This document shows positions 30,408-35,927 of a DNA stretch of 64,000 nt, piece after piece. The notes under the pieces are model-generated. The model made no database searches, was not told the DNA's origin, and saw only the letters and a program-made list of their open reading frames with translations. The stretch lies in NCBI RefSeq assembly GCF_988242995.1, contig NZ_OZ547043.1; one strand, 5' to 3'. Both the position numbers and the translations under genes were made by a program. The first letter of the stretch is position 1. Each line of letters opens with the position of its first letter.

Positions 30408-31508
30408 TTAGAACTGATAGGTAATGCCCGTTGCGACGATGTTATCGGTGCGAATATCTACGGCACGGGTAAAGTCGCTTTCATCAATCAGGTTGATTTT
30501 ATAATCAACATAGGTCGACATATTTTTGTTGAAGAAATACGTCGCACCAACGTCGATATACTCAATCATGTCCTGGTCGCCGTAGCGGCCCAGATCTCTG
30601 CCTTTCGATTTCAGGTAAGCGAGTGATGGGCGCAAGCCGAAGTCGAATTGATATTGTGCCACTACTTCAAAACTTTGTGCTTTGTTAGAGATATAACCAT
30701 CGCCATAGGTGGTCATGTTTAATGTTTCAGCGTAATTAGCTGCAAAGTAGATGTTGTTGGCATCATATTTTATACCTGTAGCCCACAGTTCTGCATTCTT
30801 ACCGGAGGCATTGAGAGGATTAGCAGCGGCTCTTTCCTGCGCATTTGTCCGATCGGATTTGGTATACACCGCACCGATACCAAAGCCATCATAAACATAA
30901 GTTGAGGAGATACCGAAACCGTCACCATTGGCACGCGTGTAGTCAGCACCATAAAGATGACCATTGTCAGTGCGTTCATTTTTGCCTTGATATTGCGCGG
31001 CAAAGTTCAGACCTTCAATTAAGCCGAAGAAATCGTAGTTGCGATAGGTTGCCACACCGGTAGTACGGTATGTCATGAAGACATCTTTCTGACTCCAGGT
31101 ATCGCCACCAAATTCTGGCAACATATCGGTCCATGAACCAATGTCATAGCCGACACCGTAGTTACGACCATAGTCCAGAGAGCCAAATTCACTAATTTTT
31201 AAACCTGCATAGGCCAGACGGGTCTTGTTACCGCGCGAGCCGTTGGCTTCATCGTTATAGCCTTTAAAATCATATTCCCAGTGACCAAAACCAATCATTT
31301 GATCATTGATTTGCGTTTCTCCTTTAAAGCCGAGACGGGCATAAGTTTTATCACCATCGTCACGCTTATCATCAGTAAAATAACGTAGAGCGGTAACCTT
31401 GCCATAAAGGTCGAGTTTATTACCATCCTTGTTATAGACTTCGGCAGCGTGTGCTACGTTCGCAGCTAACAAACCAGTTACAACCACCGCAACTATTTTT
31501 AATTTCAT
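30408..31508 (-). CDS. yddL: General porin of the OmpC/OmpF/OmpN family, apparently intact
   Basis: 366-aa ORF with signal peptide [21 protein letters not shown], then [17 protein letters not shown]… and the C-terminal …GITYQF typical of enterobacterial 16-strand porins. Confidence 0.8.
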
Positions 31509-31766
31509 TTAACAGAATCCTTTTAATTATCGTTAAACGTATTTTCTAAACGAATTTTAAACGGCGTCATTTATAAATGACATACTGTTTTTAAAATAGA
31601 ATGGTGATTAAAAACAATGAGAAAAATAGATGAAATAATATTATTTATCGATATGTGATCGAAGTCGAAATGAGATATAAGGTGAACTACTGGTATTTGA
31701 AATTTATTTTTTTATATTGTCGGAATTTATCTGATTAACTGCCGGGCCGTAGACCCGACAATTATT

Positions 31767-32648
31767 TTAGCCACGACGTGTCGCCAGCCAGCAGAGCAGG
31801 GAACCGCCGCAGACCATTAGCGCGCCTTGCCAGAACGAGAACGACAGCGGGGCGCTGAGCAGCACGGCTGCAAGCGCTGAGGAAAGGACGGGCGTAAAAT
31901 ACGAACCTACCGCCATAATGGTGACGTTGCCATGTAATATACCGACGTTCCATGCAGCATAAGCAAATCCTAAGGTAAATGCCGCAGAGGTGAGTTTAAT
32001 CATGACGGGCGTGCTAAATACCATTTCTGGTTGTGGCGTGAGAAAATAGTAAACCCACAGACTTGCTCCCGTTAGTAGGACAAAAACGGTAATTCCGTTA
32101 AATCCGCGTGCGTATTTATTCGTTACTGTGCAATAGGCTGCCCAGATAAACGCACCAATAAACGCCAGGAAATAACTCAATGGGCTGGTGGTGATATTAT
32201 TGATGATTTCATCATAATGTAACCCATTGTCACCACCTAACACCCAGCAGACGCCAACCAGGGCTAATAATAATCCTGGTACAATCAGCCAGTTGGTTTT
32301 CTGACCATTAAACAGAATGGCAAAGAGAATTGTCAGGCTGGGCCACAGATAGTTCACCATACCCACTTCAATCGCCTGATGACGGGTCGCCGCATATCCT
32401 AAGGAAAGCGCCAGACAGATTTCATAGCTGACGAATAACAGACACCCGGCGAGTAAATAGCCTTTCGGGATCTGCCGAATACGCGGAAATCCAACCGTGA
32501 AGATTAACAGCAGCCCGCTTAATGAATAGATAGCAGCTGCACCGCCGACCGGGCCGAGCCCCTCACTGACACCGCGAATCAATCCTACCATCGTGCTCCA
32601 CAGGACGATCGCTATTAGCCCTATGAGCGTTGCTTTTTGTCGTGTCAT
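31767..32648 (-). CDS. yddG: Aromatic amino acid exporter (DMT/EamA family)
   Basis: 293-aa ORF with ten predicted transmembrane segments; divergent from fdnG. Confidence 0.85.
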   Translation of the reverse strand: MTRQKATLIGLIAIVLWSTMVGLIRGVSEGLGPVGGAAAIYSLSGLLLIFTVGFPRIRQIPKGYLLAGCLLFVSYEICLALSLGYAATRHQAIEVGMVNYLWPSLTILFAILFNGQKTNWLIVPGLLLALVGVCWVLGGDNGLHYDEIINNITTSPLSYFLAFIGAFIWAAYCTVTNKYARGFNGITVFVLLTGASLWVYYFLTPQPEMVFSTPVMIKLTSAAFTLGFAYAAWNVGILHGNVTIMAVGSYFTPVLSSALAAVLLSAPLSFSFWQGALMVCGGSLLCWLATRRG

Positions 32649-32879: not shown

Positions 32880-35800
32880 ATGGACGTCAGTCGCAGACAA
32901 TTTTTTAAAATCTGCGCGGGCGGTATGGCTGGAACAACGGTAGCGGCATTGGGCTTTGCCCCGAAGCAAGCACTGGCTCAGGCGCGAAACTATAAATTAT
33001 TACGCGCGAAAGAGATCCGTAACACCTGCACATACTGTTCCGTAGGTTGCGGGCTATTGATGTATAGCCTGGGTGATGGCGCGAAAAACGCCAGAGAAGC
33101 GATTTATCACATTGAAGGTGACCCGGATCATCCGGTAAGCCGTGGTGCGCTGTGCCCGAAAGGGGCCGGTTTGCTGGATTACGTCAACAGCGAAAACCGT
33201 CTGCGCTACCCGGAATATCGTGCGCCAGGTTCTGACAAATGGCAGCGCATTAGCTGGGATGAAGCATTCTCCCGTATTGCGAAGCTGATGAAAGCTGACC
33301 GTGACGCTAACTTTATTGAAAAGAACGAGCAGGGCGTAACGGTAAACCGTTGGCTTTCTACCGGTATGCTGTGTGCCTCCGGTGCCAGCAACGAAACCGG
33401 GATGCTGACTCAAAAATTTGCCCGCTCCCTCGGGATGCTGGCGGTAGACAACCAGGCGCGCGTCTGACACGGACCAACGGTAGCAAGTCTTGCTCCAACA
33501 TTTGGTCGCGGTGCGATGACCAACCACTGGGTGGATATCAAAAACGCTAACGTCGTAATGGTAATGGGCGGTAACGCTGCTGAAGCGCATCCCGTCGGTT
33601 TCCGCTGGGCGATGGAAGCGAAAAACAACAACGATGCAACCTTGATCGTTGTCGATCCCCGTTTTACGCGTACCGCTTCTGTAGCGGATATTTACGCACC
33701 TATTCGTTCCGGTACGGACATTACGTTCCTGTCTGGCGTTTTGCGCTACCTGATCGAAAACAACAAAATCAATGCCGAATACGTTAAGCATTACACCAAT
33801 GCCAGCCTGCTGGTGCGTGATGATTTTGCTTTCGAAGACGGTCTGTTCAGCGGCTACGACGCTGAAAAACGCCAGTACGATAAATCGTCCTGGAACTATC
33901 AGTTCGATGAAAACGGCTATGCGAAACGCGATGAAACACTGACTCATCCGCGCTGTGTGTGGAACTTGCTGAAAGAGCACGTTTCCCGCTACACGCCGGA
34001 CGTCGTTGAAAACATCTGCGGTACGCCAAAAGCAGACTTCCTGAAAGTGTGTGAAGTGCTGGCCTCCACCAGCGCGCCGGATCGCACAACCACCTTCCTG
34101 TACGCGCTGGGCTGGACGCAGCACACCGTGGGTGCGCAGAACATCCGCACCATGGCGATGATCCAATTGCTGCTCGGTAACATGGGTATGGCTGGTGGCG
34201 GCGTGAACGCATTGCGTGGTCACTCCAACATTCAGGGCCTGACCGACTTAGGTCTGCTCTCAACCAGCCTGCCGGGTTATCTGACGCTGCCGTCAGAAAA
34301 ACAGGTTGATTTGCAGTCGTATCTGGAAGCGAATACGCCGAAAGCGACGCTGGCTGATCAGGTGAACTACTGGAGCAACTATCCGAAGTTCTTCGTTAGC
34401 CTGATGAAATCTTTCTACGGTGATGCTGCACAGAAAGAGAACAACTGGGGCTATGACTGGCTGCCGAAGTGGGACCAGACCTACGACGTCATCAAGTATT
34501 TCAACATGATGGATGAAGGCAAAGTCACCGGTTATTTCTGCCAGGGCTTTAACCCGGTTGCGTCCTTCCCGGACAAAAACAAAGTGGTGAGCTGCCTGAG
34601 CAAGCTGAAGTACATGGTGGTTATCGATCCGCTGGTGACTGAAACCTCTACCTTCTGGCAGAACCACGGCGAGTCGAACGATGTCGATCCGGCGTCCATT
34701 CAGACTGAAGTATTCCGTCTGCCTTCGACCTGCTTTGCTGAAGAAGATGGTTCTATTGCTAACTCCGGTCGCTGGTTGCAGTGGCACTGGAAAGGTCAGG
34801 ACGCGCCGGGCGAAGCGCGTAACGACGGCGAAATTCTGGCGGGTATCTACCATCATCTGCGCGAGCTGTACCAGGCCGAAGGTGGTAAAGGCGTAGAACC
34901 GCTGATGAAGATGAGCTGGAACTACAAGCAGCCGCACGAACCGCAATCTGACGAAGTAGCTAAAGAGAACAACGGCTACGCGCTGGAAGATCTCTATGAT
35001 GCCAATGGCGTGCTGATTGCGAAGAAAGGTCAGTTGCTGAGTAGCTTTGCGCATCTGCGTGATGACGGTACAACCGCATCTTCTTGCTGGATCTACACCG
35101 GTAGCTGGACAGAGCAGGGCAACCAGATGGCTAACCGCGATAACTCCGACCCGTCCGGTCTGGGGAATACGCTGGGATGGGCCTGGGCGTGGCCGCTCAA
35201 CCGTCGCGTACTCTACAACCGTGCTTCGGCGGATATCAACGGTAAACCGTGGGATCCGAAACGGATGCTGATCCAGTGGAACGGCAGCAAGTGGACGGGT
35301 AACGATATTCCGGACTTCGGCAATGCCGCGCCAGGTACACCAACCGGACCGTTTATCATGCAGCCGGAAGGGATGGGACGCCTGTTTGCCATCAACAAAA
35401 TGGCGGAAGGTCCGTTCCCGGAACACTACGAGCCAATCGAAACGCCGCTGGGCACTAACCCGCTGCATCCGAACGTGGTGTCTAACCCGGTTGTTCGTCT
35501 GTATGAACAAGACGCGCTGCGGATGGGTAAAAAAGAGCAGTTCCCGTATGTGGGTACGACCTATCGTCTGACCGAGCACTTCCACACCTGGACCAAGCAC
35601 GCGTTGCTCAACGCAATTGCTCAGCCGGAACAGTTTGTGGAAATCAGCGAAACGCTGGCGGCGGCGAAAGGCATTAATAATGGCGATCGTGTCACTGTCT
35701 CAAGCAAGCGTGGCTTTATCCGCGCGGTGGCGGTGGTAACGCGCCGTCTGAAACCGCTGAATGTAAACGGTCAGCAGGTTGAAACGGTGGGTATTCCAAT

Positions 35801-35927
35801 CCACTGGGGCTTTGAGGGTGTCGCGCGTAAAGGTTATATCGCTAACACTCTGACGCCGAATGTCGGTGATGCAAACTCGCAAACGCCGGAATATAAAGCG
35901 TTCTTAGTCAACATCGAGAAGGCGTAA
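32880..35927 (+). CDS. fdnG: Formate dehydrogenase-N alpha subunit (selenocysteine-containing; Tat signal)
   Basis: ORFs 32880..33467 and 33516..35927 are one frame joined through TGA at 33465-33467 (…ARV-U-HGPTVASLAPTFGRGAMTNHW…); twin-arginine signal MDVSRRQFFKICAGG…; total 1015 codons. Confidence 0.9.
33468..33512 (+). other. Putative SECIS stem-loop directing selenocysteine insertion at the fdnG UGA
   Basis: Sequence immediately 3' of the UGA has complementary arms (accaa…ttggt) around a gcaagtcttgc hairpin; position fits a bacterial SECIS. Confidence 0.5.

Follow-up and report, generated by a model that had tools for sequence, protein, structure and literature searches.

The porin gene next to yddG in Escherichia coli raises three questions: whether it is intact, to which of the known enterobacterial porins it corresponds, and whether it was inherited or acquired. 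We addressed them in a stretch of 64,000 nucleotides from contig NZ_OZ547043.1 (NCBI RefSeq assembly GCF_988242995.1), hereafter called the window. An original prediction, made by a model from the letters of this stretch, had described a complete porin gene of the OmpC/OmpF family and had suggested that it is the ancestral state of a gene truncated in the K-12 reference. The gene is located at positions 30408–31508, between a leucine-rich repeat (LRR) gene (28979–30244) and yddG (31767–32648). Open reading frame and profile matches recovered the same layout that had been predicted. Based on locus, phylogeny and comparison with other genera, the yddG-linked porin is very probably the intact Escherichia orthologue of ompD of Salmonella and Enterobacter, a general-diffusion porin inherited vertically. 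The gene itself has the following features.

30408 to 31508, minus strand: coding sequence of the OmpD-type general porin, 366 codons plus stop (open reading frame; Pfam Porin_1 match).
31446 to 31508, minus strand: signal peptide, codons 1 to 21 (solved mature chains begin at residue 22; alignment with K-12 porins).
30363 to 30396, minus strand: intrinsic terminator with a GC-rich stem of 9 bp (GACCAGCCC...GGGCTGGTT) and a T-run behind it; it begins 12 nt past the stop codon (terminator scan).

The reading frame begins with an ATG at 31508 and its stop codon ends at 30408 on the minus strand. It contains neither a frameshift nor an internal stop. All positions of the Pfam profile PF00267 Porin_1 (1–337 of 337) are matched with an E-value of 2e-134, and the NCBIfam models for OmpC, OmpF and PhoE are matched over their full length. 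The mature chains of the solved OmpC, OmpK36, OmpF and PhoE structures align to residues 22–366 with E-values from about 1e-127 to 1e-112. The predicted complete 366-residue porin is therefore an uninterrupted frame with an end-to-end family match, and an overlooked frameshift, which the original prediction had named as a reason to drop its claim, is absent from the reading frame as well as from the profile and structure-chain alignments. Since the solved mature chains align from residue 22 onwards, cleavage of the anticipated signal peptide is predicted to occur after AHA21. Alignment with the K-12 porins showed the conserved mature N-terminus (AE[VI]YNKDGNK). The C-terminus reads ...GITYQF, and the aromatic residue expected there is thus the terminal Phe of the beta-signal.

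In the same alignment all pore residues were found to be kept (K37, R58, R97, R148, D128 and E132 in precursor numbering), which correspond to the basic residues K16/R42/R82/R132 and the acidic residues D113/E117 in OmpF numbering. The PEFGGD motif of loop L3 is intact at P131–D136 (precursor numbering). Y102/Y106 and the trimer latch pair E71/R100, residues of the OmpF-type pore, are conserved as well. An AlphaFold2 model, built on a shallow alignment of 22 sequences, displays the expected strand pattern at moderate confidence (predicted local distance difference test score, pLDDT, 69; predicted template modelling score 0.69). When compared with OmpC (2j1n) in Foldseek, the model yielded template modelling (TM) scores of 0.80/0.85 over 355 columns. 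OmpC and Klebsiella OmpK36 are the best matches among solved structures (E about 1e-127, TM 0.80–0.86), and the modelled protein appears to have the 16-stranded beta-barrel fold of the family.

Judged by homology to OmpC, OmpF and OmpD, the precursor would be exported by the Sec system, cleaved after Ala21 and inserted by the beta-barrel assembly machinery via its C-terminal ...YQF signal. The mature protein would then form a trimer of 16-stranded barrels. In each barrel, loop L3 (PEFGGD, D128, E132) would narrow the pore opposite the basic ladder of K37, R58, R97 and R148, and small hydrophilic solutes, beta-lactams included, could diffuse through it. One residue of the constriction zone is peculiar to Escherichia. 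Codon 147 (window 31066–31068) encodes Tyr, at a position occupied by Lys125 in PhoE, Gly131 in OmpF and Gln or Gly in OmpC and OmpD. Every E. coli allele examined has this Tyr, as does E. albertii, but other genera lack it. Lys125 of PhoE is a determinant of anion selectivity.

Membership in the OmpC/OmpF family, as predicted, holds at the level of the family, but the specific identity of the protein is of the OmpD type. Alignment to reference porins and to the K-12 locus, a check proposed along with the prediction, set the window porin apart from every K-12 paralogue and found the K-12 copy truncated. Identities to the K-12 porins are 67% for NmpC, 60% for OmpC, 59% for OmpN, 57% for OmpF and 56% for PhoE. 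Outside E. coli, the yddG-linked porin of Citrobacter koseri is 78% identical, those of other Citrobacter and Enterobacteriaceae 72–75% and Salmonella OmpD 72%. In a neighbour-joining tree the porin clusters within an OmpD/NmpC clade, separated from OmpC, OmpN, PhoE and OmpF with 100/100 bootstrap support. Within this clade it pairs with the C. koseri protein (66%), its own branch being long and specific to Escherichia.

A different identity is suggested by current annotation. RefSeq genomes give the gene the symbol ompC, and the protein scores 495 bits against the NCBIfam subfamily model 'porin OmpC' with its cut-off of 484. It could accordingly be a second copy or allele of ompC or, with NmpC as the nearest K-12 paralogue (67%), a chromosomal copy of the prophage porin NmpC/Lc. 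Against the first option stand an identity to K-12 OmpC of just 60%, the position of the true ompC beside micF and rcsD, and the placement of the porin outside the OmpC/OmpN branch with 100% bootstrap support. Against the second, no prophage genes flank the window porin, while K-12 nmpC is located inside DLP12, and the porin is closer to the yddG-linked porins of other genera (72–78%) than to NmpC. We give this explanation next to no chance of being correct in either form. OmpC identity, the label assigned by the NCBI annotation pipeline PGAP, is ruled out by locus, identity and tree; NmpC/Lc prophage origin is rejected on context, by neighbouring core genes (yddG, fdnGHI and narU) and by the absence of a prophage. 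OmpC and OmpK36 share family and fold with the window porin but differ in sequence (about 60% identity), locus and clade. NmpC and the Lc porin of phage PA-2 belong to the same OmpD/NmpC clade, but NmpC is prophage-borne (in DLP12, disrupted by IS5 in K-12), has another locus and another signal peptide and lacks the synteny with yddG. NmpC is thus a paralogue (or xenologue) of the window porin and not its positional orthologue, although the literature commonly names nmpC as the E. coli equivalent of ompD (PMC3333887, PMC2808357).

The label 'porin OmpC' is applied by PGAP as the protein barely clears the cut-off, and carrier genomes consequently appear with two "ompC" genes. This mislabelling may lead pangenome, resistance and porin-loss surveys to miscount ompC.

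The porins with which the window gene does agree in position are OmpD of Salmonella (STM1572, historically also called nmpC), Enterobacter hormaechei and Citrobacter. Their genes are likewise situated directly 3' of yddG, co-oriented with it and opposite to fdnGHI. The proteins fall in the OmpD/NmpC clade, all pore residues are identical and the promoter and 5' untranslated region (UTR) are homologous. A further likeness is that the gene has also been lost in some lineages, namely S. Typhi and clinical isolates of E. hormaechei. The E. coli porin differs from these OmpD proteins by its long branch and by Escherichia-specific residues such as Tyr147. The intergenic region is about 260 bp in E. 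coli compared to 530–630 bp in the OmpD genera, and the downstream neighbours are LRR genes in E. coli, whereas GFA-smvA-smvR follow in the OmpD genera.

Whether the porin belongs to the ancestral chromosome or arrived with its LRR neighbours can be judged from the surroundings of the gene.

31767 to 32648, minus strand: yddG, aromatic amino acid DMT exporter (NCBIfam equivalog NF008676, 470 bits), the upstream anchor of synteny.
27535 to 30300, minus strand: low-GC insertion with two LRR genes (GC content; found in E. coli only), which does not belong to the ancestral porin locus.
27660 to 28916, minus strand: LRR_A, EspR1-like (91% identity to O157 EspR1).
28979 to 30244, minus strand: LRR_B, directly adjoining the porin gene on its 3' side.

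Window proteins were used to search yddG loci in one genome per species. The order fdnG (divergent), yddG, porin was found in about 35 loci of Citrobacter, Salmonella (arizonae, diarizonae), Enterobacter, Lelliottia and other Enterobacteriaceae. The porins of these loci are co-oriented with yddG and 68–75% identical to the window porin, and narU often follows within a few kb downstream. In S. diarizonae, the porin linked to yddG shares 98% identity with a protein carrying the NCBI name OmpD, and the order in C. koseri is yddG, porin, GFA, MFS, TetR, narU, narZ. LRR genes were detected neither in the approximately 35 yddG loci of other genera nor in the locus of E. albertii. In the latter species the porin follows yddG and is about 91% identical to the E. 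coli porin at the amino acid level, and its 3' flank joins sequence homologous to window positions 27366–27534, beside narU. Between E. coli and E. albertii, the porin and the yddG segment each show 82% nucleotide identity and narU shows 85%, so that the divergence of the porin roughly matches that of its flanking genes.

The opposite has been proposed. Okeke et al. (2011) regarded the whole O-island 62, porin and LRR genes together, as recently acquired, with an island GC content of 33–36% (PMC3079680); the K-12 copy would then have been disrupted later. The absence of segment 27535–31689 as one block in about 21% of genomes and the long branch of the E. coli porin would be compatible with such an origin. 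However, the low GC content is limited to the LRR genes (31–38% in the window), while the porin has 42–47%. In five other genera the porin is found after yddG in the same position and orientation and with a homologous upstream region, and in E. albertii it stands next to yddG without LRR genes and with a divergence like that of the flanking core genes. Among E. coli alleles the synonymous divergence (dS) of the porin tracks that of yddG, at a somewhat lower level. Joint acquisition of the porin with the island is therefore very unlikely. We reject it for the porin on the grounds of GC content, synteny and E. albertii and keep it for the LRR pair. Because of the cross-genus synteny, the homologous upstream region, the lack of LRR genes in E. 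albertii and the contrast in GC content, we conclude that the porin was inherited vertically and that the LRR pair is a later, separate insertion, found in E. coli only. The suggestion that the window holds the ancestral intact state is borne out by this synteny and by the purifying selection on intact alleles described below.

The narU-proximal LRR_A is 91% identical to an O157 protein annotated as the type III secretion system effector EspR1. On the other side of yddG, the fdnG frame (window 32880–35927) appears as two open reading frames, 32880–33467 and 33516–35927, with an in-frame TGA between them. This TGA is the known selenocysteine codon of formate dehydrogenase-N and not a disruption.

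Strain K-12 retains a remnant of the same locus. The gene order in MG1655 is narU, yddJ (pseudogene), yddK, yddL, yddG, fdnGHI, and YddL (b1472, 96 amino acids) is 100% identical to residues 1–93 of the window porin, followed by KNL and a stop. Relative to MG1655, the porin region of the window divides as follows.

31232 to 31508, minus strand: part kept in K-12 as yddL, codons 1 to 93 (blastn against MG1655; YddL identity).
29687 to 31231, no strand assigned: segment gone in K-12-type genomes, ends approximate (blastn against MG1655; junction analysis).

According to blastn, MG1655 lacks two window segments, approximately 28719–29365 and approximately 29687–31231. The second deletion, of about 1.5 kb, takes the 3' two-thirds of the porin gene, the terminator, the intergenic region and the 5' part of LRR_B. 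The first deletion joins the two LRR genes in frame. Microhomologies are present at both junctions, TCAAT at the LRR–LRR junction (a deletion of about 650 bp) and CCG between porin and LRR_B. The upstream region and the first 93 codons of yddL are identical to those of the window gene, but the 96-residue product of this deletion stub cannot form a barrel. Thus, yddL is the stump of the porin gene, made by a microhomology deletion. The prediction that K-12 carries a truncated pseudogene was right about the truncation but not about the label used in RefSeq, where yddL is listed as a coding sequence for a 'putative uncharacterized protein'. EcoGene terms it a pseudogene, and Tan et al. (2023) handled it as an uncharacterised, 'dark' gene (PMC9976479).

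The neighbouring K-12 genes were affected by the same events. Residues 1–96 of K-12 YddK correspond to LRR_B 200–295 (96%) and residues 93–317 to LRR_A 67–291 (91%), as determined for the K-12 comparison region at positions 4385–5715 of locus L001, while yddJ is the tail of LRR_A. K-12 yddK is hence a fusion of two EspR1-like LRR genes made by deletion. The locus had previously been described as disrupted in K-12 'by insertion of yddK' (Okeke et al. 2011; PMC3079680). This view is rejected here, with YddK being a chimera of both LRR genes.

To determine how widespread the two states are, the porin coding sequence was searched against 5,426 complete E. coli genomes. The full gene (at least 80% of the coding sequence) is present in 1,111 of them (20%), including O157:H7 and O145:H28, and the copies were annotated as intact coding sequences in all 24 sampled rows of full-coverage matches. 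About 3,156 genomes (58%) have the 5' stub alone, annotated as 'yddL: porin', and 1,159 (21%) gave no match. In the last group yddG abuts narU, as in strain MS 200-1, which lacks window positions 27535–31689. Strain JSWP006 carries another deletion, corresponding to window positions 29460–30576. In E. albertii (CP034213.1, L096 6137–8014) the porin orthologue is split by the insertion sequence IS1 near codons 77–84. Most E. coli have therefore destroyed the porin gene by deletion, and other lineages did so by a different deletion, by loss of the whole segment or, in E. albertii, through IS1.

Three further observations concern these events. The junction of the whole-segment loss (L003 5990–6001 compared to window 27535 / 31689) is not clean, with approximately 9–10 extra bases (AATGACTTT) between the flanks, and an AACTA repeat is found on both sides of the porin–LRR segment in the window (near 27535 and 31689). 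The locus of E. albertii contains a second IS1 fragment before narU, and its IS1 split represents another independent inactivation of the porin. A metagenome contig of 2.1 kb from ENA (P0001) encodes a 365-residue porin, of which the first approximately 115 residues resemble OmpC and the rest hardly differs from the window porin. Either recombination in nature or a chimeric assembly has produced it.

If the gene is dispensable for most of the species, the question arises whether it is maintained where it is intact. The window allele was compared with three divergent intact alleles, those of O157:H7, goat strain R32 and baboon strain A30. The alleles differ almost only at synonymous sites, with one pair showing 35 synonymous versus 1 nonsynonymous difference. 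The ratio of nonsynonymous to synonymous divergence (dN/dS) of the porin is 0.007–0.12 among intact alleles. Its dS of 0.03–0.18 is somewhat below the 0.05–0.24 obtained for yddG. These values point to strong purifying selection on the intact alleles, and because carrier lineages keep the gene under such selection, the porin is probably expressed under some condition.

Alternatively, the intact frame could be effectively silent, quiescent like ompN or nmpC, contributing nothing to the outer membrane and simply not yet decayed. The loss of the gene in about 80% of genomes through at least three different deletions, its weak −35 equivalent and the AT-rich DNA upstream are in line with this assumption. 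So are the surface loops, which are nearly invariant among alleles (1–4 amino acid differences); such constancy is uncommon in a major porin exposed at the surface and may reflect low exposure. A functional study of the E. coli porin was not found in the searched literature. On the other hand, a dN/dS of 0.007–0.12 over a dS of up to 0.18 does not fit neutral drift of an unexpressed gene, and no damage is seen in the Shine-Dalgarno sequence, the terminator or any functional residue. In addition, the orthologues of Salmonella and Enterobacter are major porins with phenotypic weight (PMC4215857, PMC11874173). A silent gene is therefore unlikely, although this objection deserves more attention than the two rival origins discussed above.

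Which signals could drive expression was assessed from the region upstream of the start codon.

31509 to 31680, minus strand: promoter and 5' UTR region, homologous to ompD of other genera (alignment A1).
31518 to 31522, minus strand: Shine-Dalgarno sequence AAGGA (alignment A1).
31588 to 31593, minus strand: putative −10 box TAAAAA, placed by alignment to Salmonella ompD.

In Salmonella, Citrobacter, Enterobacter and Lelliottia, the roughly 170 nt preceding the ATG can be aligned with those of the window gene and contain conserved blocks. A conserved GATCACA box, a possible CRP half-site, was also observed upstream of the porin; OmpD is an abundant protein controlled by cAMP-CRP, anaerobiosis and pH. 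The −35 equivalent has diverged and reads TTGTTT in E. coli compared to TTGAAC/A in the other genera. A promoter scan of the upstream region yielded matches to only 9 of 12 consensus positions, and shuffled sequences gave a similar number. Since these matches are no commoner than in shuffles, the promoter position rests on the alignment with Salmonella and not on the scan; the positions of the −10 box and of the start site were derived from the 69-nt 5' UTR of Salmonella ompD (PMC3333887).

The ompD mRNA of Salmonella is repressed inside the coding sequence by the small RNAs MicC (codons 23–26), RybB, SdsR and InvR (PMC3333887). For the E. coli porin, the corresponding span of the mRNA covers codons 6–26 (window 31430–31491). 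Duplexes were predicted in silico, and the MicC and RybB sites were recovered in Salmonella and C. koseri. For MicC, a duplex of −15.8 kcal/mol at +66 to +79 was predicted for Salmonella (C. koseri also −15.8), whereas the best E. coli duplex reached −7.7 at an unrelated site; the site itself reads GAAGTCTATAAC in E. coli. RybB pairing at +17/18 to +27 yielded −18.3 in Salmonella and −17.4 in C. koseri compared to −13.7 in E. coli, with a seed site of TGCAGTGGCA in Salmonella and of TGCGGTGGTT, with wobble pairs, in E. coli. The values for SdsR were −33.9 in Salmonella and −24.2 for the E. coli alleles. Thus, judged by these in silico duplexes, the coding-sequence sites for MicC, RybB and SdsR mapped in Salmonella ompD are eroded in the E. 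coli gene. The 12-bp MicC site (codons 23–26) is broken in most E. coli alleles and in E. albertii, while strain R32 keeps a 9-bp remnant. The site is also missing in Enterobacter, which makes it a trait of the Salmonella/Citrobacter lineage and not of the whole family. As the −35 element differs and the pairing with MicC, RybB and SdsR is lost or weakened, regulation of the porin has probably moved away from that of Salmonella ompD. Because of the eroded small RNA sites, the regulatory circuit of Salmonella should not be assumed for the E. coli gene.

Several points weigh against our interpretation of the gene as an intact, maintained ompD orthologue. In the tree, the split between the window porin and the prophage NmpC/Lc subclade is weak (51–53% bootstrap support), the branch of the E. 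coli protein is long, and OmpD of Salmonella is nearer to NmpC (78%) than to the window porin (72%). The confidence of the structure model is only moderate (pLDDT 69), and expression and channel activity of the E. coli protein are predictions from sequence comparison. Upstream, the −35 equivalent is poor and the DNA, with a GC content of about 31%, could invite silencing by H-NS. Around 80% of genomes do not possess the full gene, implying that the porin is dispensable, and for the 1,111 full-coverage copies intactness was judged from the 24 sampled annotation rows.

The polymorphism between intact and lost porin genes as such is already known and was described in 2010–2011. Chaudhuri et al. 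(2010) reported Ec042-1601 as 'an apparently functional ompD' in strain 042 of enteroaggregative E. coli (EAEC), paired it with the K-12 nmpC pseudogene and noted an unusual divergence (PMC2808357). Okeke et al. (2011) assigned the locus to O-island 62 (z2239–z2242), with yddL matching the 5' end of z2239 and yddJ the 3' end of z2242 (PMC3079680). In the literature the window porin thus bears the names Z2239 in EDL933 and Ec042-1601 in EAEC 042 (PMC3079680, PMC2808357), and Fröhlich et al. (2012) regard nmpC as the ompD of E. coli (PMC3333887). New in the present study are the identification of yddL instead of nmpC as the K-12 counterpart of the E. coli 'ompD', the ancestry of the porin with the LRR pair as a separate insertion, the origin of yddK as a deletion-made chimera, and the frequencies of the states, the evidence for selection and the weakened small RNA sites.

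Work on the orthologues indicates what loss of such a porin can entail. OmpD of Salmonella facilitates entry of H2O2, is a target of protective antibodies and is absent from S. Typhi (PMC4215857). In E. hormaechei, ompD adjoins yddG, and natural yddG–ompD deletions together with ompC frameshifts lead to carbapenem resistance at a cost in virulence (PMC11874173). By analogy, similar consequences of porin loss in E. coli are plausible. The porin repertoire sets the permeability of the outer membrane to nutrients and antibiotics as well as the set of phage and colicin receptors and of antibody targets. The original prediction's suggestion, that an additional general porin may alter permeability and the phage and colicin receptor repertoire, appears reasonable.

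A broader proposal can be put forward only tentatively, and we consider it possible but rather doubtful. The gene at the yddL locus, and not nmpC, would be the real E. coli orthologue of ompD and a selectively maintained sixth porin in about 20% of the species (O157:H7, O145:H28, phylogroup-D EAEC). It would have left the Salmonella circuit (MicC pairing lost, RybB and SdsR pairing weaker, −35 element changed) and acquired a Tyr in the constriction, and its repeated independent loss would be adaptive. If this were true, the loss would represent an escape from phage, colicin, antibody or antibiotic influx, comparable to the loss of ompD in S. Typhi and in carbapenem-resistant Enterobacter. The independent losses in question would then be the K-12-type deletion, the whole-segment deletion, the JSWP006-type deletion and the IS1 insertion in E. 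albertii.

The understanding of porins is unchanged by these results; orthology and annotation are tidied. For E. coli itself, they mean that about one fifth of the genomes, major pathogen lineages included, possess an extra OmpD-type porin that is ignored by models based on K-12.

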